A DNA stretch of 25,644 nt from a virus (taxonomy: Duplodnaviria > Caudoviricetes). Under the pieces are notes generated by a model, which searched no databases, was not told the origin of the DNA, and saw nothing but the letters and a program-made list of their open reading frames with translations. The stretch is taken from positions 1 through 25,644 of IMG/VR virus record IMGVR_UViG_3300025382_000042. One strand, 5' to 3'. Position 1 is the first letter of the stretch, and the number at the start of each line of letters is the position of its first letter. Both the position numbers and the translations under genes were made by a program. Below are positions 624-15,474 of this stretch, piece by piece.

Positions 624-782
624 TTAGAACACCCCCGCCACGAAGATCAACCAGCACCCCGTGGCAAAAATCCACGCCCCTGGGACCAGCATCCCATCGC
701 TCAGCGTTGACATGCTCCCCAGGATGCACCCGATACCCCCGGCGGCAAGGGTCAATTCCAGCGCCCAGCGAGGAAAGACCAT
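624..782 (-). CDS. Small putative membrane protein (about 52 aa, two hydrophobic segments)
   Basis: C-terminal part of ORF 624..884 (MVFPRWALELTLAAGGIGCILGSM...GAWIFATGCWLIFVAGVF). It lies downstream of and slightly overlaps the 752..1117 gene. The start is uncertain. Confidence 0.4.
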   Translation of the reverse strand: MVFPRWALELTLAAGGIGCILGSMSTLSDGMLVPGAWIFATGCWLIFVAGVF

Positions 783-1117
783 TTCCTGTGGTAGTGACGT
801 GCGCTGTTTTGATCCACGCCCACGATCTCGCCTACTTGTCTCCATGTCATATTCTCCCGTCTCAGTTGGTTGATTTTCTGCCACTTGGTGACTTGCTCTG
901 CCGTTGGCACACGGACCGGCGGGCCACTAGACTTGCTGGTGTAAGTTGTCCTGGCGGGCACCATGCCTAGGGCCGCGAGGACGCGGCCTGTGGTGCTGAC
1001 TGTCGGGACATCCAGGCGCAGTTCTTCTGCGATCTGGGGGTAGGTGAGGCGAGGTGTTGCGCCAAGCAGCGCAACGAGCCTCTTTGCTGTTTCCTTCTTC
1101 ACAGCTTGCTCGCGCAC
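752..1117 (-). CDS. Helix-turn-helix DNA-binding protein (two HTH-like motifs)
   Basis: LTYPQIAEELRLDVPTVS and MTWRQVGEIVGVDQNSARHY. Overlaps the end of the upstream gene. Confidence 0.75.
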   Translation of the reverse strand: MREQAVKKETAKRLVALLGATPRLTYPQIAEELRLDVPTVSTTGRVLAALGMVPARTTYTSKSSGPPVRVPTAEQVTKWQKINQLRRENMTWRQVGEIVGVDQNSARHYHRKWSFLAGRWN

Positions 1118-1524
1118 TCGGGGCCGATCCCCCGGTCTATGCTGTCTGGCGTGGTCAGGGGCCTGCCACAGCGGGCGCAGCGTCCTTCGTGGCGGACCTC
1201 TAAGCCTACCTCGTGCGGGTCATGCCCACCCAGGATGACTTTGTCGGCAAGCCACTTGAAGGCGAGGGCTGGCTTGCTTTCCGGCCGGTAGCGTGACTTT
1301 GCCGTCACGCGGAACCCGGTGTCGCTCAGGATGCCCAGGTAGGTAAAGTCTGACGTGTTGTCAGCCCCGGCCAGCAGCGACACGAAGAACAGGTTCTCTG
1401 TGTCTTTGGTCGCCTTCACCTTGTAGGTGTAGCGGGCGTTGGTCTTTTTAGACGAGATCGTCAGCGTGGCGTTGCCGGCCGTGACAAACTCTGAGACCTT
1501 GTGGGCATCGCATATCATGCACAT
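1099..1524 (-). CDS. DUF6011-like Zn-finger phage protein
   Basis: C-terminal CARCGRPLTTPDSIDRGIGPEC motif. SD GGAGA upstream of the ATG. Confidence 0.85.
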   Translation of the reverse strand: MCMICDAHKVSEFVTAGNATLTISSKKTNARYTYKVKATKDTENLFFVSLLAGADNTSDFTYLGILSDTGFRVTAKSRYRPESKPALAFKWLADKVILGGHDPHEVGLEVRHEGRCARCGRPLTTPDSIDRGIGPECASKL

Positions 1525-1550
1525 TGGCTTTCTCCGTGTTGATGAAGCAA

Positions 1551-1579
1551 ACCTTAATCACGCCAACAAATGTGGTCAA
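1551..1579 (-). promoter_or_regulatory. Sigma70-like leftward promoter
   Basis: Minus strand TTGACC-17 nt-TAAGGT, about 25 nt upstream of the 1524 start. Confidence 0.5.
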
Positions 1580-1910
1580 GAGCGTTTTGCGCATTTTGCG
1601 CTTAAACTTGTGCAAGCCAGGACGTAAGTTGCCGAGGTTTATGCCGCAAGTTCCCCCAGGGGGTATCGTAAAAAAAGTAAGTAAAAACAATATATTATAT
1701 ATATATTATTATCCTATAATACCTCTTTCGTCTTTCGTCCTGCCACCCCCCCCCTTTTTTTCATCTCATTTTTGAGATACGTTCTAAGGGTAAAGATAAA
1801 GACCCTCTTGGCGAAAGCCATAAGTCCAAAAAACCCAGGACGCTCTAGGGCTAACTTCGGCAAGCGCTGTGCCACAAGTGATAGCGCTATGCCACAAGAT
1901 GATAGCGCGC

Positions 1911-1948
1911 AAAAAAAACCCTCTCCGCGCATATGCAGCAGGAGAGGG
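1911..1948 (-). terminator. Rho-independent terminator of the leftward operon
   Basis: Minus strand CCCTCTCC...GGAGAGGG stem followed by T8, just after the 1998..2345 gene. Confidence 0.8.
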
Positions 1949-1997
1949 CTAGAGTTGAGACACGGAGGAACATGCGCAACGCGCATGTCCTTTATGG

Positions 1998-2345
1998 CTA
2001 GTTGGTTCTGGCGTCGTCAACACCTTCCCACACCGCCTTGATTTGGACGGGGTGTCCATCATCGGCGTTCGGTTCGATGTTGTGGAGTTGGCACCATTCG
2101 GACCATGCAAGTGCTGTGGTGTGATACATGGCATCCAGCAGGGCGGGACCGCCTAGTTCGTGCAACATATTCTTGATATTATGGAGTGCGATGCTTCCAT
2201 CTGTTGTTGTTGCCTTGTTGGCTAGGACGAGTTTCATCATAACCGCCACCACCCGTCTGAGGGCGACATCTTCTCTGGCGTCGCCCGACAGGTCGAGGAT
2301 GGGGACGCCATCGATGTAAGCGCCTCTGGCGGTGGGGTTACTCAT
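1998..2345 (-). CDS. Hypothetical phage protein (115 aa)
   Basis: Overlaps the preceding gene's stop, has a purine-rich SD region, and is followed by a terminator. Confidence 0.7.
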   Translation of the reverse strand: MSNPTARGAYIDGVPILDLSGDAREDVALRRVVAVMMKLVLANKATTTDGSIALHNIKNMLHELGGPALLDAMYHTTALAWSEWCQLHNIEPNADDGHPVQIKAVWEGVDDARTN

Positions 2346-2568
2346 CTTTTTTTCCTTTCGGTCTTTGGATGCGGATTTGCGGTGGCGGGTTTTGCCGCAT
2401 GATGTCCACCATGCGTTCTAGCCACTCGACCACGCCTTTTGGCGGGCCGATGGTCAGCCACGATTGGCAGGTGCGTGAGCCGCACTTTAGCCAAGGTGCG
2501 ATGGACCGCGCCGACCAGTGAAGGGTGTCGAGGGCTTGCGCGTATCGATCTGCGAGGTCTCGGTTCAT
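2338..2568 (-). CDS. Small HTH (Cro/XRE-like) protein (76 aa)
   Basis: ALDTLHWSARSIAPWLKCGSRTCQSW resembles an XRE-type HTH. ATGA overlap with the upstream gene. Confidence 0.7.
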   Translation of the reverse strand: MNRDLADRYAQALDTLHWSARSIAPWLKCGSRTCQSWLTIGPPKGVVEWLERMVDIMRQNPPPQIRIQRPKGKKDE

Positions 2569-2996
2569 AGTGGTAGCGCCCCCTGGCGCAGACGGAATAG
2601 GTGGTAGCGTTTGCGGTCTGCTGATGGCACAAGGCGGATGTGGCCATCGGGGATTTTTGCTTCTTTGATGAGGGTTTGGGACAAGATGGTTCTGACGTGT
2701 TTGCTGTCGGTCATCTTGTTATTGCGGATGAGGGCCTTGCCGACCTCGTAGGTCGTGAACAGCATGTCTGGGTTGGCGTTGAAGATCGCCATGATGTCGG
2801 CAAACTTTGGCAAGACGACCTCAGAGACCGCCACGGCAGGCTTTGGTGTGGCAGGAACGACGTTGGCGGCAGGTTCAACGTGCAGATCGGCGTAAGGGTT
2901 TTTGAACGCCTCTACCACGTTGTTGTCTTCTACTAAGAGGAAGTCGCCGGGTTCAGCGACAATCCGGTTTACGCATGTGATGATATAACGGGTCAT
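2565..2996 (-). CDS. Hypothetical protein, possible C-terminal winged helix (143 aa)
   Basis: ATG at 2996 in a TAATG overlap with the upstream stop, SD AAGGA. C-terminal FTTYEVGKAL...YHLFRL pattern. Confidence 0.7.
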   Translation of the reverse strand: MTRYIITCVNRIVAEPGDFLLVEDNNVVEAFKNPYADLHVEPAANVVPATPKPAVAVSEVVLPKFADIMAIFNANPDMLFTTYEVGKALIRNNKMTDSKHVRTILSQTLIKEAKIPDGHIRLVPSADRKRYHLFRLRQGALPL

Positions 2997-3652
2997 TACA
3001 CATATTCCTTTTTTAGTTGTTTCAACCACCAATCTGGGTATTCGATGGGTGCCTCTCGCCGTGGCATGATGATGCCGACAACGTCTTGTCTTTGGTTGTG
3101 GAAGACGATGTAAAGACCGCCATCCTCATCCCCTGCGACCAAACGGATGCCACCATCTTTCCCCCCAAGGTGTTCAAATGCGCCAAGGTAAGCGGGGTTG
3201 AGCGCGAAGGTGTGACTGTTGAACACGCGGGGAAAGCGTTCTTTGGGGAACACCCGCATGTAATTGGGAAACGAGCCATCGATCAGCAGGTCAGAAAAAT
3301 TGGCCTGCACCAATCCTCGGTGGCTAAAAATATCGCCGTCTAGAATCACCGACACATCAGTGCCTTTGACAGCAATCCAGTTTTGCATCGTTTGGTGTTG
3401 GTGGATCTTAGCCTTGCACGCAGAGATTAACCGCTTGTCGGTTTTGATGGTGATAGACCCGTTCTCTAACGCAAAGCCATTGGGTGCGTTGGCAAGTAAC
3501 AAAATGTGGCCAGACGTGGCGCAGATGTTGACGCCGCCGCTAGAAGCCGGTTGGACATTGACACCTTGCAGATAAAAGCGGCTTGCGTCCTTGCTGACGA
3601 ACGGCAGGCAGTCCAGAAACAGACTTGCCGGAAAAGCGTAATCATACCCCAT
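2996..3652 (-). CDS. DNA polymerase III beta-clamp-like protein (218 aa, shorter than DnaN)
   Basis: SKDASRFYLQGVNV, ICATSGHILL and LIDGSFPNYMRVFP match clamp central-domain motifs. SD AGGAGAGG. Confidence 0.75.
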   Translation of the reverse strand: MGYDYAFPASLFLDCLPFVSKDASRFYLQGVNVQPASSGGVNICATSGHILLLANAPNGFALENGSITIKTDKRLISACKAKIHQHQTMQNWIAVKGTDVSVILDGDIFSHRGLVQANFSDLLIDGSFPNYMRVFPKERFPRVFNSHTFALNPAYLGAFEHLGGKDGGIRLVAGDEDGGLYIVFHNQRQDVVGIIMPRREAPIEYPDWWLKQLKKEYV

Positions 3653-3656
3653 TGTC

Positions 3657-3926
3657 TTATCCTCTCCTTTTGCGTGGCATGGCCCTAGCGAACAGGCACA
3701 ATTCCCTTGTGTCGGGATGACGGCCAGTTACCACGCTGATTGACGGTTTGTTTTTGTCTTGAATTGCGGTCATCGACAAAAACAGTTTGCGTTCGCTGAT
3801 GTCGTCCAGCGCACCGCAATATTTCCAGACAAACATTTGTTTGTCGTTTTCCACACGCCTTGCGGCGATTTTCCAGTCTTCCGCGATATCGTTGATGTCG
3901 CGGACTTCTTCTCGCGTGTTGATCAT
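3657..3926 (-). CDS. Hypothetical phage protein (89 aa)
   Basis: Strong SD AAGGAGG before the ATG at 3926. Abuts the next gene. Confidence 0.75.
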   Translation of the reverse strand: MINTREEVRDINDIAEDWKIAARRVENDKQMFVWKYCGALDDISERKLFLSMTAIQDKNKPSISVVTGRHPDTRELCLFARAMPRKRRG

Positions 3927-3948
3927 TATGTCCTCCTTTTTTTTGCTG

Positions 3949-4176
3949 CTATCCCAGATGCACAAAATGCGCAATGGGTGTTTTGGTTCGCACGCCCTCG
4001 GTGATGTTGACTGGCAAGCGGATGTCTTGGTTGCGCCACGTCCAACATTCGCCGGTCTCGCGGATGAAGGTCACCCAGCGCAGATCGTGGTCCTGGCTGT
4101 AGTCCACGACCAAATAGGCAAGCGCTGCCCCCTTGGGCGTGTCTAGGGGGATGGGTGGATCGAGGCGGTGTATCAT
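3949..4176 (-). CDS. Hypothetical phage protein (75 aa)
   Basis: ATGA overlap with the dUTPase stop. Protein-like sequence (LDPPIPLDTPKG...VDYSQDHDLRWV...TGECWTW). Confidence 0.8.
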   Translation of the reverse strand: MIHRLDPPIPLDTPKGAALAYLVVDYSQDHDLRWVTFIRETGECWTWRNQDIRLPVNITEGVRTKTPIAHFVHLG

Positions 4177-4604
4177 ATGCCTGTGCTTCCAAACCCGCCG
4201 TCACCGCGTTCTGTGCCCGGTAATTCGCTCACCGTTTGCCATTCGATGCGGACCACCGGGCATAGGACGGCTTGTGCGATCCTCATCCCCCGTTCGATGA
4301 TAAAGGGCTTGTCACCATGGTTGATGAGAAGGACCAAAATCTGACCACGGAAGTCAGAGTCGATGGTGCCAGGGGTGTTTAGCACCGTCACTTGGTTGCG
4401 CGCTGCAAGGCCAGAACGAGGGCGGATTTGCAATTCGTAACCGGCTGGGATGGCGACGGACAATCCTGTTGGGATTGCCTTGCTATCGCCGCTGTAGAGC
4501 GTGATGTCGCGTTCAATCGCAGCTTGTAGGTCTAGCCCCGCCGCTCCTGACGTAGCGTATTTCGGCAGCGGCAGGGCAGACGTGTTTACGACGGATATGA
4601 TCAT
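4173..4604 (-). CDS. dut: Trimeric dUTPase
   Basis: All five motifs are present: AGLDL, RPRSGLA, GTIDSDFRG, RIAQ, RGDGGFGSTG. SD AAGGAGG before ATG 4604 (alternative start 4640). Confidence 0.97.
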   Translation of the reverse strand: MIISVVNTSALPLPKYATSGAAGLDLQAAIERDITLYSGDSKAIPTGLSVAIPAGYELQIRPRSGLAARNQVTVLNTPGTIDSDFRGQILVLLINHGDKPFIIERGMRIAQAVLCPVVRIEWQTVSELPGTERGDGGFGSTGI

Positions 4605-4636
4605 ATTGTCCTCCTTGATTGATGTTAAGGTGATCG

Positions 4637-4951
4637 TCATTTTTTGGACACTTCAGCGGCGATGGCGAGATAGGCTGCGCCATCGACGTAATTATCTTCG
4701 TTGAATTTGGAACCGGCGGCGATCCTGGCGACTTTGGACAAAACCATGATCATAGCAGCGTCGTGCGCTGTTAAATGATTCCCGTGGAAGTCTAAATAAC
4801 CATTCACGAAACGCGCAAAGCACGCCATATTGCGCTCTGGCGGGCCATACACTTTGTCCCTGGTTTGCGTCGTCAATTCGATGGCACGTTCTAGCAAGAT
4901 TTGCCTTTGGGCTTTTGCCGGAATTACCCCGTCCATTCTTGTTTTAGTCAT
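4637..4951 (-). CDS. DUF6378-like protein (all-alpha NTP pyrophosphatase-like)
   Basis: RDKVYGPPERN, AMIMVLSKVAR and DNYVDGAAYLAIAAE. Confidence 0.8.
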   Translation of the reverse strand: MTKTRMDGVIPAKAQRQILLERAIELTTQTRDKVYGPPERNMACFARFVNGYLDFHGNHLTAHDAAMIMVLSKVARIAAGSKFNEDNYVDGAAYLAIAAEVSKK

Positions 4952-8142: not shown

Positions 8143-9576
8143 TTGGCATCTTTGAACATCATTTCTTCCTCGCTCAACAGTTCGCTTCAAGACCTGTTGA
8201 TGGTCGATGAGATTGTCCCAGGTTCTGATGCCAGCTATCAAATCTGCAAGACGATTTACTCATACCACCCATTAGGCCGCAAGATGGTCGATGCGCCGAT
8301 TGTCATGGCGCAATCCCAACAGCGGCAGATCACTATCAAAAACGCCCCAGAGAACCGCGTGCGCGAAGCGTTTGAGCGGGAATGGGAAAGGATTAACGCC
8401 GATACCTACATTGCCCAATTGGCTGGTGTAGCGCGTATTTATGGCGTGGGATCGATTGTCGTGGGTGCCGAGGGCATTGCGCCCGAAAAGGAATTACCAG
8501 CGGACAAGATGGCTGACCTCGCCGTCTACTTCAACGTCCTTGATCCGCTGAACACGGCAGGGTCTTTGGTTCTAAATCAAGACCCAAATTCACCCGATTT
8601 CCAAAAATACACCGTCATCACGGCGGCTGGCGTGCCGTATCACCGCAGTCGGTCTGTGGTGCTGATGAACGAACGCCCGATATACATCGAATACACATCG
8701 TCAGCCTTTGGCTACGTTGGCCGGTCGGTGTATCAGCGTGCGCTATTCCCTTTGAAGTCGTTCGTCAACAGCATGGTTGCCGACGATATGGTGGCCACGA
8801 AGGTCGGCGTGATCGTCGCCAAGATCAAAGCGCCAGGATCGATCATTGACAACGCCATGCAGCGTCTGGCGGGCGTCAAGCGGGCATTGCTGCAGGAGGC
8901 CCGGACCAACAACGTGATGTCCATCGACATTGCCGAGGACATCAGCGCGATTGACCTGACCAACATTGACGGCGCGGGCACCTACTCCCGCACCAACATC
9001 CTCAAGAACATCGCCACCGCTGCCGACATGCCAGCAAAGATGCTGGAGAACGAAACTATGGTGTCTGGCTTTGGCGAGGGCACCGAGGATGCCAAAAATC
9101 TAGCACGATACATCGACAGCATCCGCCAGTGGATGCAACCGGCATATCGCTTCTTTGATGAAGTTGTCATGCGCCGTGCGTGGAACGAAGATTTCTACGA
9201 AATTATCCAGCGCGAATACCCGGAAGAATATAAAGACGTTAAATACAACGATGCGTTCTATCGTTGGAAAAACAGTTTTGAGGCTGAATGGCCGTCACTT
9301 CTGAGGGACCCGGATTCCGACTCCAAGGTCGAGGAGGTTCGTCAGCGTGCCATCATCTCCATGATGGAAATTCTCTTGCCAGAGATGGACCCGGACAACA
9401 AGGCGCGTGTAATTGAGTGGGCTGTGGCTAACGCTGGCGAGAACAGGCTGCTGTTCCCGCAACCTCTGCTGCTCGACTATGACGCATTGAAAGAATATGT
9501 CCCGCCAGACATGCACCCAGGGGATGAGCGGGAGCCAAAGCCCCATAAGCCATCCCTCATGCGGTTGGTGGATTGA
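8143..9576 (+). CDS. Portal protein (DUF1073-like)
   Basis: 477 aa, directly after TerL. ARIYGVG, GYVGRSVYQR and GFGEGTEDAKN motifs. TTG start with SD GGGGA. Confidence 0.88.
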   Translation: MASLNIISSSLNSSLQDLLMVDEIVPGSDASYQICKTIYSYHPLGRKMVDAPIVMAQSQQRQITIKNAPENRVREAFEREWERINADTYIAQLAGVARIYGVGSIVVGAEGIAPEKELPADKMADLAVYFNVLDPLNTAGSLVLNQDPNSPDFQKYTVITAAGVPYHRSRSVVLMNERPIYIEYTSSAFGYVGRSVYQRALFPLKSFVNSMVADDMVATKVGVIVAKIKAPGSIIDNAMQRLAGVKRALLQEARTNNVMSIDIAEDISAIDLTNIDGAGTYSRTNILKNIATAADMPAKMLENETMVSGFGEGTEDAKNLARYIDSIRQWMQPAYRFFDEVVMRRAWNEDFYEIIQREYPEEYKDVKYNDAFYRWKNSFEAEWPSLLRDPDSDSKVEEVRQRAIISMMEILLPEMDPDNKARVIEWAVANAGENRLLFPQPLLLDYDALKEYVPPDMHPGDEREPKPHKPSLMRLVD

Positions 9577-9690: not shown

Positions 9691-11466
9691 ATGAGCAAGC
9701 CCTTATCATTCTTTGAGGTGGTTACTGCCGCCGTCAAAGACATCAGTGAACATGGCTATGACAGCCAAGAGCGTGTCGATTATTGGATGCGTGAGATCGT
9801 CGTGGCAGCGCGACGTGACATGGTGTCTGAAACCACCCTAGAACTGGCGCTGTTTGGCCACCTACGCACACTTTACACGTCGATGGTGGAAAAGGGCACG
9901 ATCCTCAAGCGCCACCCTGGCGTGTCTAAATTCACCCTAGAGCGCATCAAGCCAAAGCTAAGGAATGAGTTAGACCGACGCATTATGACATCGGCACAAC
10001 TCATCAAGTTGAACCGCGAAACCGCAATCCAAAAAACCTTGCAGCGTTTCAGTGGTTGGGCCACTTCAATCCCGGCAGGCGGGTCTGAGGCCGTTGATAA
10101 GGTCGAGACAAAAAGCAAAATCCGCAAGTCTCTGACTGACTTGCCGTTTGAAGAACGGCGGGTTCTTATAGATCAAGGACATAAATTAGTTTCATCAATA
10201 AATGACATAATTGCTCACGACAATAATGCCATAGCGGCAGAGTGGCACAGCCATTGGAAAGAATTGAACTACAATTATCGAGACGACCACAAAGAGCGAG
10301 ACATGAAAGTCTACGCGATACGAGATAATTGGGCAATTCAAGCCGGATTGATGAAAAAGGGACCAGACGGCTACACCGACGAGATAACTCACCCCGGCGA
10401 GGAAGTTTATTGTTTTCCTGGAGATTCAAAAATTCCATTCGCTTATGGTGTAAAAAAAGCGTTCAGGCGTTGGTATAGCGGTCAGTTGACCGAGGTTATT
10501 TCGGCTTCTGGCAAATCTCTCCGAGGAACACCTAACCACCCAATTCTTACCACCAATGGCTGGATTGCTATTGGCGCTTTGAAGAAAGGCGACTACATTA
10601 TCGAGATTCCCGATGAGTTGTTCAACTCGGCGGAAAAAAATCAAAATGACACGATACCCACAATTTTGGAGATATTTACTGCGCTCCAAAAAAACGGGAT
10701 CACTCATACGACGCACCAAAGGCCCACAGACTTCCACGGCGATGGAGCCGAGGGCAATGTCGATATTGTATATACCACAGGGCCATTGTCCTTCGGGGTT
10801 GCATCCAAGTTCAACCAGTCGGTTGATAATGTCCTCCTCTCCATAACCGACAAACCTGTTGCGATGGGAGGCACGTTTGATTTTACTAGAAATTGTTTGT
10901 TTTTTTCCAATGATAGAAGCGTGCGCAGCACTTACTCTAATTTTCTTTTGCTCAGCACTCATTTGAGCCATGCTAATGACATTGGCTTCCGATCCGCCAC
11001 GAATGGCAATCTTGTTCTCAATCAATCTATTTCTCACAGCGCCTCGGGAAATGTTCAATCTTTTAGAGATCGACAATTCGCTTTCACCTCCAAGATAGGA
11101 AGTGCAAATAGCCTCGTCATCGAGCGCCAAACGACGACCATTGTTGATGATTTGCGGCCCTATATCAATGTTCAGGGCGTGGAGTCGCGCAAACAAGGAA
11201 CTGGTTTTCCAGCCGAGCATCTCGGCAATAACTGGCACAGACTTCCCTTCGGCGCGAAGGCGGTTGAAGTGATCGATGTCAAGGTCTCTAGCTTTGCGGG
11301 GCATGTTTACAACCTTCAGACGGTAGATGAATGGTATGTAGCACAAGGCGTGATCGCACACAACTGCCGGTGTTATTATCGTTACATATATAATTTGCGC
11401 GATCTGCCGCAAGAAATGTTGACAGTAAAAGGCGCAAATGAACTCAAAAGAGTGAGTATAAATTGA
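9691..11466 (+). CDS. MuF/gp7-like head morphogenesis protein containing an intein (precursor 591 aa, spliced 273 aa)
   Basis: Follows the portal gene. WHSH...YR-x2-H motif. After intein removal the MuF C-terminal motif HPGEEVY-CRC is restored. Confidence 0.9.
   Translation: MSKPLSFFEVVTAAVKDISEHGYDSQERVDYWMREIVVAARRDMVSETTLELALFGHLRTLYTSMVEKGTILKRHPGVSKFTLERIKPKLRNELDRRIMTSAQLIKLNRETAIQKTLQRFSGWATSIPAGGSEAVDKVETKSKIRKSLTDLPFEERRVLIDQGHKLVSSINDIIAHDNNAIAAEWHSHWKELNYNYRDDHKERDMKVYAIRDNWAIQAGLMKKGPDGYTDEITHPGEEVYCFPGDSKIPFAYGVKKAFRRWYSGQLTEVISASGKSLRGTPNHPILTTNGWIAIGALKKGDYIIEIPDELFNSAEKNQNDTIPTILEIFTALQKNGITHTTHQRPTDFHGDGAEGNVDIVYTTGPLSFGVASKFNQSVDNVLLSITDKPVAMGGTFDFTRNCLFFSNDRSVRSTYSNFLLLSTHLSHANDIGFRSATNGNLVLNQSISHSASGNVQSFRDRQFAFTSKIGSANSLVIERQTTTIVDDLRPYINVQGVESRKQGTGFPAEHLGNNWHRLPFGAKAVEVIDVKVSSFAGHVYNLQTVDEWYVAQGVIAHNCRCYYRYIYNLRDLPQEMLTVKGANELKRVSIN
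10411..11364 (+). mobile_element. Intein (318 aa)
   Basis: Block A CFPGDSKI, block B LRGTPNHPILT, GWIAIGALKKGD, block F GHVYNLQT, and block G IAHN followed by Cys+1. Confidence 0.95.
10426..11304 (-). CDS. Antisense intein-nested gene: tandem HTH plus Vsr/DUF559-like (PD-(D/E)xK) endonuclease, putative homing endonuclease (292 aa)
   Basis: Two HTH repeats (GKSVPVIAEMLGWKTSSLFARL; GESELSISKRLNISRGAVRNRL), a basic linker, and a nuclease core GEEDI...QWPCGIYNIDIA...IAVEVCG...ERSKYLQNCGYRVILI. SD-like GAAGGT before ATG 11304. Confidence 0.85.
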   Translation of the reverse strand: MPRKARDLDIDHFNRLRAEGKSVPVIAEMLGWKTSSLFARLHALNIDIGPQIINNGRRLALDDEAICTSYLGGESELSISKRLNISRGAVRNRLIENKIAIRGGSEANVISMAQMSAEQKKIRVSAAHASIIGKKQTISSKIKRASHRNRFVGYGEEDIINRLVELGCNPEGQWPCGIYNIDIALGSIAVEVCGPLVRRMSDPVFLERSKYLQNCGYRVILIFFRRVEQLIGNLDNVVAFLQSANSNPAIGGKNWVVRCSSERFARSRNNLGQLTAIPTPERFFYTISEWNF

Positions 11467-11846
11467 TGTCTGAAATAATACGCGCTGCTGGTGTTATGTT
11501 TCTGACGGATTCTGGCGACACATTGCTTTTGAAGCGTGCCATGACATCCGATGAAGGCGGGACCTGGGCTTTCCCTGGCGGGCACATTGAAGAAGGCGAG
11601 ACGGCCGAGGAAGCCGCAAAGCGCGAATGTGAGGAGGAGATCGGATTTTTGCCTGATGGAGACATGCGCTATTGGACGAGGCGCATTTCCAATGATGTCG
11701 ATTACATAACTTACTTGCAGCGGATCGACAAAAGGTTTATTCCTAACCTTAATGGCGAGCATACAGACTACGCCTGGATTCACGTATCTAAGGTTTTGCC
11801 CCATAATTCCATGGAACCCGAGCATGGCAAGGAAATTGTCAGGTGA
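11466..11846 (+). CDS. Nudix hydrolase
   Basis: Nudix box GGHIEEGETAEEAAKRECEEEIG, plus LNGEHTDYAW. TGATG overlap with the MuF stop. Confidence 0.95.
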   Translation: MSEIIRAAGVMFLTDSGDTLLLKRAMTSDEGGTWAFPGGHIEEGETAEEAAKRECEEEIGFLPDGDMRYWTRRISNDVDYITYLQRIDKRFIPNLNGEHTDYAWIHVSKVLPHNSMEPEHGKEIVR

Positions 11847-13516
11847 GTGAATATCACCCTGACGATCTGCATCCTGGGGTGAAGGTCTCAATCAATCGAT
11901 TGGGAATGGATGAACTCGGCGTGGCTAAAGCCATTCGTAACGGTGAATTAACAAGCCCACAAAAATACGAAAACATAACGCTATTTGCCATCCGAATTAC
12001 TGGCACAGGTAACGCTTACAGAACGAAACTAGATGAACACGTTTATCGAGACCCAAAACTCTACCTTAATAAGGAGTTCTTGGAACGATGCAACGGTCTG
12101 CCGGTGATTTGGGAACATCCCGATACTGGAAAATTAAATTCAAAAGAATTTGCTGATAGAATTATTGGCACGGTTTTGTTGCCTTACATCAAAGGCGATG
12201 AAGTCTGGGGAATTGCCAAAATATATGACGATTCCGCCGCCAAGATGATGGAATCAAAACAGCTTTCTACTTCGCCCGCCGTTGTTTTTCGTAACACTGA
12301 TGGCAATGTAAAGGCGGAGTTGAAGGACGGTTCTTCCCTTTTGGTCGAGGGAAAGCCGAGTTTGCTTGACCACATAGCCATCTGTGAAGAAGGCGTCTGG
12401 GACAAAGGTCGGGACCCGACCGGAGTCGAATTACCAACTACACCAACCTCTGAGGGTTCTGACATGCCAGAAATGGAAATGGAGAAGCGGCATGATGCCG
12501 CTGAGAACATCGACAAGCTGCTGAAGGGCGTTGATGCGCTCGTTGGTCGCCTCGATGCCATGGAAAAGCGTATGGATTCCATGATGAAGCATCGTGATGA
12601 CGATGATGATGATGACGATGATGATGACGACCGCAAGGACGCCAAGCATCGCAAGGACGACGACGATGACGATGATCGTCGCGCCCGCAAGGATTCCAAG
12701 AAGCGTCACCGCAAGGACGACGACGACGAAGGCGGCGAGTCTTTCAAGAAGTGGGCTGAAGAAGAAGCCAAAGAGAAAGAACACAAAGCCGACGACAACG
12801 ACGACGACGATGACGACGACGACGATGATCGTAAGGACGACGACGAGGATGAGCCTGAGATGGGCGAACCCAAGAAACTCGCCGCCGACAAGAAGCATCA
12901 TCGCAAGGATGATGACGATGATGACGACGACAAGCATCGCAAGGATGCTAAGAAGCATCATCGCAAGGACGACGATGACGAAGACGATGACGATGACGAC
13001 GACGACCGTCGCAGCGATTCGGTGAAGCGCATGAACAAAGCTACCATGGCTGAACTTCGCCGCCTGTCCGAAACCATTTCGCGTATGCCCAAGTCCATGA
13101 CGGATGCGGACTATGCCGCGATGGCTGACTATCAGGCGAAAGCTGACAGCGTTTACGGCGCTTTCGGTGAACGCGCTCCTGCGCCGCTGCAGGGCGAGTC
13201 CGCGACTGCGTATCGTATCCGCCTTGCCAAGGGGATGCAGAAGCACTCTGCGCCGTGGAAGGAAGTTTCCTTGCGCGACCTGCCGGGTAAGGCTCTGGCC
13301 ATTGCTGAGGCGCAGATTTACGCCGATGCGACTGCCGCTGCTCGCAGCCCGAATGACGTGCCGATGGGTTCTCTCCGTGCGATCCGTCGCAAGGATGCCG
13401 CTGACCGCGTCATGACTGAATTTGTTGGCGATCCGAGTGCTTGGATGGGCGAGTTCCGCACTGCTCCTCGCAGCATCACGAAGCCGTTCTTTCGCCCCCG
13501 CCAGATTGGAGGTTAA
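11843..13516 (+). CDS. DUF2213-like prohead protease/scaffold protein with a poly-Asp region
   Basis: GLPVIWEHP, LSTSPAV and LDHIAICEEGVWD motifs. Position before the capsid genes. Charged, low-complexity C-terminal half. Confidence 0.85.
   Translation: MSEYHPDDLHPGVKVSINRLGMDELGVAKAIRNGELTSPQKYENITLFAIRITGTGNAYRTKLDEHVYRDPKLYLNKEFLERCNGLPVIWEHPDTGKLNSKEFADRIIGTVLLPYIKGDEVWGIAKIYDDSAAKMMESKQLSTSPAVVFRNTDGNVKAELKDGSSLLVEGKPSLLDHIAICEEGVWDKGRDPTGVELPTTPTSEGSDMPEMEMEKRHDAAENIDKLLKGVDALVGRLDAMEKRMDSMMKHRDDDDDDDDDDDDRKDAKHRKDDDDDDDRRARKDSKKRHRKDDDDEGGESFKKWAEEEAKEKEHKADDNDDDDDDDDDDRKDDDEDEPEMGEPKKLAADKKHHRKDDDDDDDDKHRKDAKKHHRKDDDDEDDDDDDDDRRSDSVKRMNKATMAELRRLSETISRMPKSMTDADYAAMADYQAKADSVYGAFGERAPAPLQGESATAYRIRLAKGMQKHSAPWKEVSLRDLPGKALAIAEAQIYADATAAARSPNDVPMGSLRAIRRKDAADRVMTEFVGDPSAWMGEFRTAPRSITKPFFRPRQIGG
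12590..13010 (+). repeat. In-frame GAY-triplet / (H)RK-Dn low-complexity repeats
   Basis: About six Asp tracts of up to 12 residues. AAGAAGCATCATCGCAAGGA is duplicated at 12890 and 12950. Confidence 0.95.
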
Positions 13517-13522
13517 TAACCA

Positions 13523-14437
13523 ATGGCTAACTCGATTTCGGTAAATCCGATGCTGACGACCACCAATTACGGTGGTTTCAGCACCCAGTCTGTCGGCCTT
13601 GTTCAAGGCGTTGTGATGGACGACCCGGCAGTGCGTTTCGCGCTAACCGGTGGCCCGCTGGCTGCCACTGAAACCCTGCCGATGTGGGGTGGCGTTGGCA
13701 TCTATGCCACCGTCCCCGCTTACAGCGGCGCGGGCACTCCCGGCGGCGAACTTGGCCCGGTCATCAGCCGCGCCACGACCCAGACGGCTGGCGCTTCTGG
13801 CCAGTTGCTTGGGTTCAGCACCTTCAATCAGGCGACGGCGTGGATTTCCACCCCGCAGTCTCCGGTGCCGACCGCTTCTGCCAACATGAGCGTTCCTTAC
13901 TTCCCGTTGGGTTCGGGTGCGCGCATTGCGGTTGCTTGCGATCCGTCGCTTGCGGCCTCTCTCGTTGGCGGTTCGCTGGCGCAGGCAGTGTCGTGGGACT
14001 TCAACAACCAAGTCCTGCAGGCGTATGACGCTTCCACACCGTCATATTCTCTGACCAGCATCACATCCTCCTACTCGTCCACCACTGGCCTCTACACCTT
14101 CGTGGTGGTCGCGGCGGCGGCGACTCCGGTGGGTGCGGTTGGTGACTCCATTTACATCGGCGGCGTGACCAGCACTGGCGCGGCTTATGTGAACGGCACG
14201 CAGACCGTTTCGGCGTTCACCAACAACCAGAACTTCAGCTTCCAGGTTGCCGCACCGTCTGGTGCGATTGCCACTGGCGCGCTGTCTGGCACGTTGACGC
14301 TGACTTATGGCACTGCGGCCCTGCCGTGCAAAATCCTGCGCGTGCAGTCCGGCAACAGCAAAACGGTTGTTTACAACTCGGTTGCTGGCACTGCGAATTG
14401 GAACAATTCGGGCACCTGCGCCCTGATCCAGATTTAA
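13523..14437 (+). CDS. Head decoration/cement protein with an inserted beta-rich module
   Basis: Lies between the scaffold and capsid genes. SD GGAGG. Rich in Gly, Ala, Thr and Ser. PMWGGVGI and LGSGARI motifs. Confidence 0.75.
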   Translation: MANSISVNPMLTTTNYGGFSTQSVGLVQGVVMDDPAVRFALTGGPLAATETLPMWGGVGIYATVPAYSGAGTPGGELGPVISRATTQTAGASGQLLGFSTFNQATAWISTPQSPVPTASANMSVPYFPLGSGARIAVACDPSLAASLVGGSLAQAVSWDFNNQVLQAYDASTPSYSLTSITSSYSSTTGLYTFVVVAAAATPVGAVGDSIYIGGVTSTGAAYVNGTQTVSAFTNNQNFSFQVAAPSGAIATGALSGTLTLTYGTAALPCKILRVQSGNSKTVVYNSVAGTANWNNSGTCALIQI

Positions 14438-14451
14438 GGGGAGCCACATAA

Positions 14452-15474
14452 ATGGCGAATATCACTCCGTCGCGGGTAATGGTCAGCCCGCACTACATGG
14501 AACCGGCCAAGCTGTTGCAATACAATCAGGCGTCCGGCGCGTTTGATGCCCTGGCGGGTGGCAACCCGCTGGTGCGTCTGGGCGAAGGCGATCTGTATGT
14601 ATATATCGATGCGTTCGATATTCGCACTGTGATGTCGGCTGGCCAGAGCGAATATAATTCGCTCCCGTCCGTCACCGTCACGGCGCGTCAGATCAGCACG
14701 CCGACGTATCTGCAGCGCGTTCGCGCTGAATACGATCATCATGACACCGCTGCGATGTCGCAGTGGGGCGTGAGCATCGTTGAAGCGCAGCGCCTTGGTA
14801 TGCGCCAGGGTCACTTCCAGTTGATGCGCAGCGCGCTGCTGTATGGCTTCAACGGCGCGAACGGCGAGGGCCTGCTGAACGCTAGCGGTGCCACCACTGT
14901 CAGCTTGCCGCCGGACAGCAACGGCAACACGACTGTTGTCACCTATGACAACGGCCAGATGGCGTTCTTCCTGCTGTCGCAGATCAGCGCGATGAAGACC
15001 CGCACCATGCAGCTTGGCATTGGCCATCGCATCGTGGTGCTTGGTCCGCAGCGCGTGCTTGGCACCTGGGAATATCAGGACATCGTTCAGTTGACCCAGT
15101 TCCAGCGCGCTGGTGCTGGTTCGCTCTCGACCGCTGGCGTCGTTAAGGCGGTTGGCGAAATGAACGAGGACGAAATCCTGTGGTGCTATGACGACACGCT
15201 GATTGGCAAGGGTGCCGGTGGCACTGACGCCGTTCTGATCGTCATGCCGGAAGTTGAAAAGCCCAAGAACGGCCGCATCAACACGAACGTGTTTGCGGAA
15301 CTGGCTCCTGGCTTGGCAGCTTGCACCCTGCAGTATTGCGACATGGCCGCGCCGCGTGAAATCCCGACACCGCTTGCCGGTGGCGCGATTGACGTGCTGT
15401 CGGAACTGCGCATCACGTCCGGCTGGGGCGTGCGACCGGAAGCGATTGCCGTCCTGTCGATGCAGTATCAGTAA
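14452..15474 (+). CDS. Major capsid protein
   Basis: 340 aa, strong SD GGGGAG, strongly biased codons, LLYG...GEGLLN motif, and synteny. Confidence 0.85.
   Translation: MANITPSRVMVSPHYMEPAKLLQYNQASGAFDALAGGNPLVRLGEGDLYVYIDAFDIRTVMSAGQSEYNSLPSVTVTARQISTPTYLQRVRAEYDHHDTAAMSQWGVSIVEAQRLGMRQGHFQLMRSALLYGFNGANGEGLLNASGATTVSLPPDSNGNTTVVTYDNGQMAFFLLSQISAMKTRTMQLGIGHRIVVLGPQRVLGTWEYQDIVQLTQFQRAGAGSLSTAGVVKAVGEMNEDEILWCYDDTLIGKGAGGTDAVLIVMPEVEKPKNGRINTNVFAELAPGLAACTLQYCDMAAPREIPTPLAGGAIDVLSELRITSGWGVRPEAIAVLSMQYQ

Follow-up and report, generated by a model that had tools for sequence, protein, structure and literature searches.

A phage MuF-like head gene with an intein and, on the opposite strand, a codon-aligned gene for a putative homing endonuclease

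Can the same bases of a phage genome serve a self-splicing protein on one strand and a nuclease gene on the other? This question is raised by a MuF-like head-morphogenesis gene in the IMG/VR record IMGVR_UViG_3300025382_000042, a 25.6-kb record of an uncultured phage that is estimated to be 47% complete and that was analyzed over its whole length of 25,644 nt (hereafter the window). The gene contains an intein, and a preliminary description of the sequence had claimed that the element is coded twice, the sense strand providing for splicing and the antisense strand carrying a nuclease gene. Our results support this claim. We estimate a probability of about 85% that the element is a mobile intein whose homing endonuclease likely comes from a separate, codon-aligned gene on the opposite strand, its mobility and expression being predicted. 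The dual-coding reading is supported because selection is specific to the reading frame, because two folds are predicted, and because intein-less alleles and a free-standing homologue of the nuclease gene were found. Anti-sense VSR-like homing endonucleases in full inteins of actinobacteriophages have been reported by Gosselin, Arsenault and Gogarten (bioRxiv 10.1101/2025.01.02.630785). The architecture is already described in this preprint, and the window case adds no new principle to it.

The intein and the reading frame opposite to it

The head gene and its intein consist of the following parts (pLDDT, predicted local distance difference test score of the structural model):

9691-11466, + strand: MuF-like head-morphogenesis open reading frame (ORF), 591 aa
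9691..10410, + strand: N-extein of this gene, 240 aa, with PHROG matches
10411..11364, + strand: class-1-type intein, 318 codons, from Cys1 (CFPGDSK...) to ...VIAHN, followed by Cys+1
10411..10590, + strand: Hint N-terminal part, sense codons 1-60, pLDDT 91-97, overlapping the C-terminal tail of the nuclease
10804..11202, + strand: sense residues 132-264, shadow translation of the nuclease gene, predicted to be disordered, pLDDT below 50
11257..11364, + strand: Hint C-terminal part with blocks F and G (GHVYNLQT ... VIAHN), pLDDT 92-96
11365..11466, + strand: C-extein, opening with the CRC motif, stop codon included

All class 1 splicing residues are present (C1, T40-P-N-H43, H317-N318 and Cys+1), and C1, T40, H43 and N318 are invariant across 36 relatives. 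In Pfam, the 591-aa product matched Intein_splicing with 36.2 bits, which exceeds the cut-off of 35.8 by a narrow margin (E 6.5e-9). The AlphaFold model of the sense intein (36 relatives) is confident at both Hint ends, and residues 132-264 are without secondary structure. The first 12 Foldseek rows for this model are all intein splicing domains (Mtu RecA, RadA, GyrA and DnaB), with weak E-values of at least 6e-3, and a Pfam search of the middle of the sense intein gave no match. Taken together, an intact Hint splicing domain is present on the sense strand and is interrupted by ~220 codons, the sense translation of which is unconserved and predicted to be disordered; splicing itself is predicted. 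The preliminary description had proposed a 318-aa intein with intact splicing blocks and a middle that reads like a shadow translation, and had anticipated a Hint fold with a disordered insert; all three hold.

On the opposite strand we found the following features (residue numbers are those of the antisense protein; HTH, helix-turn-helix):

10426..11304, - strand: antisense gene for a 292-aa HTH-HTH-nuclease protein, a putative homing endonuclease, stop included; assigned by Pfam, homology and fold
11176..11277, - strand: HTH unit 1, residues 10-43, HTH_23, with helices at 10-18, 23-30 and 34-43
11017..11118, - strand: HTH unit 2, residues 63-96
10555..10854, - strand: Vsr-fold nuclease core, residues 151-250
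10837-10839, 10759-10761 and 10732-10734, - strand: the invariant nuclease-core residues E156, D182 and E191, respectively
10438..10542, - strand: predicted C-terminal beta-hairpin, residues 255-289, overlapping Hint blocks A and B

The antisense ORF lies in exact codon register with the sense frame (antisense residue a faces sense residue s = 299 - a), and the bases of the sense peptide at 10729-10773, read in reverse complement, encode antisense residues 178-192. None of the 24 Leu and 25 Ser codons of the antisense ORF is TTA, CTA or TCA, and the sense intein contains a single TCA, at codon 6, which is the reverse complement of the antisense stop. Calculated from the codon usage of the 16 other ORFs on the + strand of the window, such avoidance has a probability of ~3e-4 for either strand. 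The position, register and mirrored peptide given in the preliminary description were thus found in the sequence as described, and its observation of TTA, CTA and TCA avoidance on both strands stands with codon 6 as the sole exception.

The antisense protein matched HTH_23 (residues 15-43, E 1.2e-4) and Sigma70_r4_2 (residues 69-94, E 1e-5) in Pfam; besides sigma-70 region 4, the matches of the HTH units include resolvase-like similarity. A match to REase_MTES_1575 (PF18741) over residues 156-222 stayed below the cut-off (17.1 versus 38.2 bits, E 6e-3). Fold prediction from a 94-sequence alignment reached a mean pLDDT of 94.5 and a predicted template modelling score (pTM) of 0.73, with two three-helix units (10-43 and 63-96), a helical stretch, an alpha/beta nuclease core and the C-terminal hairpin. 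Foldseek agrees with the HTH and nuclease assignment at weak E-values. Among sequences of the Protein Data Bank (PDB), profile matches were obtained for 2lvs (tandem HTH, positions 7-100, 1.7e-7), 3hrl (8e-5) and 3r3p (6.8e-3); a profile of the nuclease domain only (26 sequences) was weaker than the full profile, with 3hrl at E 0.01 and 3r3p not found. The two HTH repeats and the HTH plus Vsr-like folds that the preliminary description had expected are thereby borne out. E156, D182 and E191 occur in 94 of 94 aligned sequences, Q173 and Y179 in 93, position 208 is always Arg or Lys, and M1 is nearly invariant. The window copy holds every family-invariant residue (E156, Q173, Y179, D182, E191 and R208).

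The preliminary description had likened the nuclease to Vsr/DUF559-like (EDxHD) domains. The prototype EDxHD homing endonuclease, I-Bth0305I (Taylor et al. 2011, PMC3239194), has its gene in a group I intron, whereas the gene of the window nuclease lies in an intein. E170 and D196 of I-Bth0305I correspond to E156 and D182 of the window family, a match made by order and fold without residue-level superposition. Its H213 and D222 have no conserved counterpart in the family, in which Q173, Y179, E191 and a basic residue at 208 are conserved instead. Likewise, when we looked for a His general base and a second Asp, the alignment columns between 192 and 230 held at most 10 His and at most 31 Asp among the 94 sequences, as judged without side-chain superposition. 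According to its model, the antisense nuclease has the Vsr-like fold but not the strict EDxHD signature: the fold, the conserved Glu and the first Asp agree with the prototype, and the conserved His and second Asp are absent.

Selection along the element and its homologues

We compared selection on the two strands, as the preliminary description had suggested, by counting differences at the three codon positions between the window and two related loci, L012 and L013, each 64% identical to the antisense protein (for the pair L012-L013, the rows for Hint-C and C-extein are absent from the comparison). Between window and L012, the N-extein and Hint-C show the ordinary sense pattern, with 64/51/145 and 4/1/16 differences at sense positions 1/2/3. 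Intein codons 106-290 show an antisense pattern (116/48/72), in which the freest site is sense position 1, i.e. antisense position 3, and Hint-N codons 1-105 are mixed (25/7/30). In the middle, the sense translations of window and L012 are 0.30 identical with a ratio of nonsynonymous to synonymous differences (pN/pS) of 0.96, versus 0.58 and 0.39 for the antisense translations; over codons 106-290, the sense pN/pS ranges from 0.88 to 0.96 in these comparisons, and the antisense pN/pS of the window against L012 and L013 from 0.39 to 0.41.

The same was observed in 12 disjoint pairs drawn from 48 distinct inteins. Change at sense positions 1/2/3 amounts to 0.477/0.215/0.301 in the nuclease core, to 0.304/0.129/0.327 in the overlapped Hint-N, and to the sense-type pattern 0.145/0.120/0.380 in Hint-C downstream of the His codon, beyond the antisense start. 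In 15-codon bins, the frame under selection switches near sense codon 60 and again 30-45 codons before the end of the intein. Within sense codons 1-60 the sense frame dominates: the ratio of position 1 to position 3 substitutions is 0.48-0.85, and BLOSUM62 conservation is 1.6-3.0 in the sense and 0.3-1.3 in the antisense translation. The BLOSUM62 comparison over eight distant homologues (L009 was left out as a near-duplicate of L007) gave the same frame switch. These data show purifying selection on the antisense frame in the middle of the intein and on the sense frame at its ends. The element illustrates how a selfish nuclease and a self-splicing protein can share DNA, with selection visibly changing strand along its length, and ~880 bases are protein-coding on both strands, of whose two genes standard gene callers report one.

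Homologues of the antisense protein are numerous. In a library of 1.84 billion proteins, the cluster representatives numbered 1465 at E<=1e-3, 730 at E<=1e-10 and 42 at E<=1e-30; a word-indexed protein search gave 5 relatives only. With tblastn, 114 GenBank phage records were matched, 22 of which cover at least 80% of the query. They come mainly from phages of Salmonella (62), Pseudomonas (15), Klebsiella (8) and Gordonia (8), with 27-34% identity among the 40 records listed, and relatives also occur in phages of Vibrio, Edwardsiella and Aggregatibacter. Nine GenBank loci were inspected. In eight of them an annotated head/MuF gene occupies the strand opposite to the match, and its sense frame is open through the match. 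Seven of these eight are annotated with the head gene alone. The other one, Salmonella phage PK1, carries both genes in its annotation: a ‘hypothetical protein’ coding sequence on the opposite strand (L009:1402-2211, + strand) is the nuclease gene and overlaps the head-morphogenesis coding sequence.

In the ninth locus, Acinetobacter phage IME285 (L006), the homologue is a free-standing annotated gene and is collinear with the antisense protein. It converges with an intein-less MuF gene (Phage_Mu_F, E 7e-12), and the 3' ends of the two overlap by a few bases (L006:455-1348, + strand, and 1345-2127, - strand). The strand opposite to this homologue is broken by 13 stops and lacks a Hint signal.

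A census of 76 IMG/VR loci, seeded by two patterns from a 10-sequence alignment, showed Hint-N on the opposite strand in every case, and Hint-N together with Hint-C in one opposite-strand ORF in 66. By eye, two of the remaining ten are contiguous with a divergent block F, which brings the contiguous opposite-strand inteins to 68 of 76; seven are truncated at contig ends, and the last one, L051, has an in-frame TAG. An antisense open run of at least 240 codons is kept in 64 of the 66 loci, and the CRC junction is common to most of these 66 viral loci. In L051 (1327-3246, - strand), the single in-frame sense TAG lies at 1573-1575 within the shadow region, and the 270-aa antisense nuclease ORF is intact. 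This locus may represent an intermediate of the split-intein (‘fractured gene’) kind, a head gene that has become inactive, or an error in sequencing.

Presence of the intein is sporadic. Four loci with 70-71% N-extein identity (L088-L091) have no intein, and their exteins are joined exactly at the predicted site (...GEEVF|CRCFYR...), which confirms the intein boundaries. The intein is present in L012, L013 and L092, though these are more distant (~66% N-extein identity) than the intein-less loci. Within the 25.6-kb record itself, a search gave a single copy of the element.

Start and stop signals, proposed mechanism and alternative explanations

The signals at both ends of the antisense gene are formed by codons of the splicing domain:

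11302..11304, - strand: antisense ATG, reverse complement of the block-F His298 codon CAT
11313..11317, - strand: Shine-Dalgarno-like (SD-like) GAAGG, 8 nt upstream of the ATG, arising from the reversed block-F Asn-Leu codons, with a presumed function in translation
10426..10428, - strand: antisense stop TGA, reverse complement of the intein Ser6 codon TCA

Among 40 distinct inteins with the motif found, 36 use CAT and 4 use CAC for the block-F His. An SD-like motif 5-16 nt upstream of the antisense ATG is seen in 35 of the 40, and the antisense stop at intein codon 6 in 23.

We propose that the antisense gene would be transcribed and translated on its own, starting from the SD-like motif and the ATG that block F forms when reversed. 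During co-infection, its product would bind an intein-less MuF allele and cut it near the ...GEEV(F/Y)|CRC... junction; the cut allele would then acquire intein and nuclease gene through recombinational repair. The sense frame would stay open, as head protein could be made only if the whole intein is translated and spliced out. Because the sense frame must stay open for the head protein, the nuclease gene is barred from TTA, CTA and TCA. Mobility, antisense expression and an uncoupling of the nuclease from the late head gene are what the arrangement suggests. The family would then comprise many natural nucleases with HTH units and a Vsr fold whose target, the MuF CRC junction, is predictable.

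Several observations weigh against this reading. A promoter scan of 11305-11500 gave no convincing minus-strand promoter; the nearest promoter-like match (9/12) lies at 11830-11803, and a terminator-like hairpin at 11412-11395 stands between this match and the ATG. In L042 and L082 the antisense ORF is broken while the sense intein is open (longest runs of 183/289 and 125/213 codons). These two look like decaying endonuclease genes, and any single copy, including that of the window, could therefore be inactive. The extein context of L082 differs as well (...HN|CTLD). The census is biased, as one of its seed patterns lies in the tail shadowing Hint block A, and its loci are not independent, with 52 distinct antisense sequences among 66. 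In codons 1-60 the antisense constraint is modest: change at position 3 is 0.33-0.40 versus 0.42 in the non-overlapped Hint-C. The AlphaFold confidence of the hairpin 255-289 could be borrowed from covariation of the mirrored sense Hint hairpin; the free-standing homologue of IME285, which has a tail of the same length as the hairpin region, speaks against such borrowing. Finally, 2 of the 16 other + strand ORFs of the window, one Asp-rich and of low complexity and the other capsid-like, have in-register antisense runs of 360 and 340 codons. We therefore rejected the open antisense frame as statistically decisive by itself; alone it is weak evidence, and the weight comes from homology and selection.

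These control frames, open by chance, together with the leakage of conservation from one frame into the in-register opposite frame, are what could be cited for an antisense ORF that is just a shadow of sense constraint, the sense insert being the functional part. We consider this extremely improbable, since in the middle variation is greatest at sense codon position 1 and the sense translation is 30% identical where the antisense translation is 58%. Moreover, the sense insert is predicted to be disordered whereas the antisense protein folds at a pLDDT of 94.5 and has Pfam, PDB and structural matches, and the free-standing homologue has no open opposite frame. It is also unlikely that the antisense gene of the window phage is a relic, i.e. 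a former homing endonuclease gene that is now inactive in an intein inherited only vertically. The promoter scan, the decayed ORFs of L042 and L082, and several VSR-like cases in the actinophage preprint that appear vertically inherited would fit a relic; the window copy, however, has an intact ORF with all family-invariant residues and an antisense pN/pS of 0.39-0.41 against both L012 and L013, and its closest extein relatives are without the intein.

A real antisense protein might act other than in homing, as an HTH regulator or as a nuclease against competing phages or host DNA, or an antisense RNA might tune the head gene. Two HTH units with similarity to sigma-70 region 4 and resolvases and ~880 nt of perfect sense-antisense complementarity are in line with such roles, which we nevertheless judge quite improbable: tandem DNA-binding units joined to a Vsr-fold nuclease are the architecture of I-Bth0305I, the catalytic acidic residues are invariant in all 94 sequences, the gene is linked to an intein whose presence is sporadic and whose site is fixed, and its free-standing homologue lies beside an intein-less copy of the same target gene. 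Homing by an opposite-strand endonuclease thus remains our preferred explanation.

Relation to known systems and genomic setting

Like the actinophage inteins of the preprint by Gosselin and colleagues, the window element has a separate antisense ORF in a contiguous intein, a Vsr-fold nuclease and a sense insert without recognisable fold. The window phage is uncultured, and its relatives in phages of Salmonella, Klebsiella, Pseudomonas, Vibrio, Edwardsiella and Aggregatibacter lie outside the PhagesDB scope of that preprint; the layout thus reaches well beyond the actinophages of the first report. Compared with the elements as presented there, the window ORF spans the stretch from the block-F His codon to intein codon 6 and overlaps both Hint parts. 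Details that may go beyond the preprint are this wider reach, the interlocking of start and stop with Hint blocks F and A, and L051 as a relative with one stop.

Antisense LAGLIDADG ORFs in inteins, as in DnaX of Synechocystis, were described by Gorbalenya 1998 and Gogarten 2002, as cited in the same preprint, and a 2026 preprint deals with the cyanobacterial dnaX intein (bioRxiv 10.64898/2026.09.14.751524). In these inteins, too, the endonuclease gene lies inside the intein and is not translated within the intein polypeptide, but the window nuclease has a Vsr fold and a different host gene. PMC8966425 and PMC4853749 were considered as precedents for an opposite-strand endonuclease in an intein and rejected, since in the text concerned the words are used in other senses.

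In the fractured genes of Dassa et al. 2009 (PMC2677866), split inteins flank a free-standing Vsr-like endonuclease gene. The endonuclease superfamily, the phage hosts and the position of the endonuclease gene between the Hint halves are shared with the window; the host gene, however, is broken in that layout and its halves splice in trans, whereas in the window the sense frame runs on through the endonuclease gene without a stop. The main text of that paper contains none of the terms antisense, complementary strand, reverse, Aaphi23 and both strands. It is possible that L051, with its in-frame sense TAG and intact antisense ORF, bridges the contiguous and the fractured layouts. A bolder view, which we offer tentatively and rather doubt as a whole, is that the nuclease gene is interlocked with the splicing domain (start and SD-like motif in block F, stop in block A Ser6, and ~60 Hint-N codons doubling as the hairpin) and forms a fixed two-strand unit that hundreds of phage lineages, far beyond the actinophages, share at one MuF site. 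A single substitution to CTA at a Leu codon, silent in the nuclease (compare L051), would then split the host gene and might offer a one-step route to split-intein ‘fractured genes’.

The neighborhood of the head gene contains the following genes:

8143-9576, + strand: portal gene (Phage_portal_3, E 6e-20), preceding the head gene
11463-11846, + strand: NUDIX hydrolase gene (E 1e-21), directly downstream of the head gene
14452-15474, + strand: capsid-like ORF (Major_capside, E 1.5e-5, below cut-off)

The 591-aa head-gene product matched the PHROG families phrog_15127 (head protein, E 7.8e-56) and phrog_324 (head morphogenesis, E 1.4e-24). Pfam Phage_Mu_F (PF04233) gave no match to the window's N-extein at E<=0.001. 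It was matched in the relatives L028, L006, L069 and L078, where the match stops just before the intein or the CRC site. The label ‘MuF-like’ for the window gene is based on the PHROG matches and on these Phage_Mu_F matches of its relatives. A blastn search of the head gene against GenBank phages gave no match. In L078 a single open frame of 1305 aa (782-4696, - strand) combines the MuF domain with the intein and a NUDIX domain, and one frame of L077 contains both a portal domain and the intein.

Two further ORFs of the window show long antisense frames. A 557-aa ORF at 11843-13516 (+ strand) has long Asp/Lys/Arg-rich low-complexity runs and no Pfam match, and a 391-aa antisense ORF at 12431-13606 (- strand) arises from its composition alone, a reminder that long antisense ORFs in the window need not be genes. 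The capsid-like ORF at 14452-15474 is devoid of TTA, CTA and TCA, and its in-register antisense frame is therefore open for all 340 codons.

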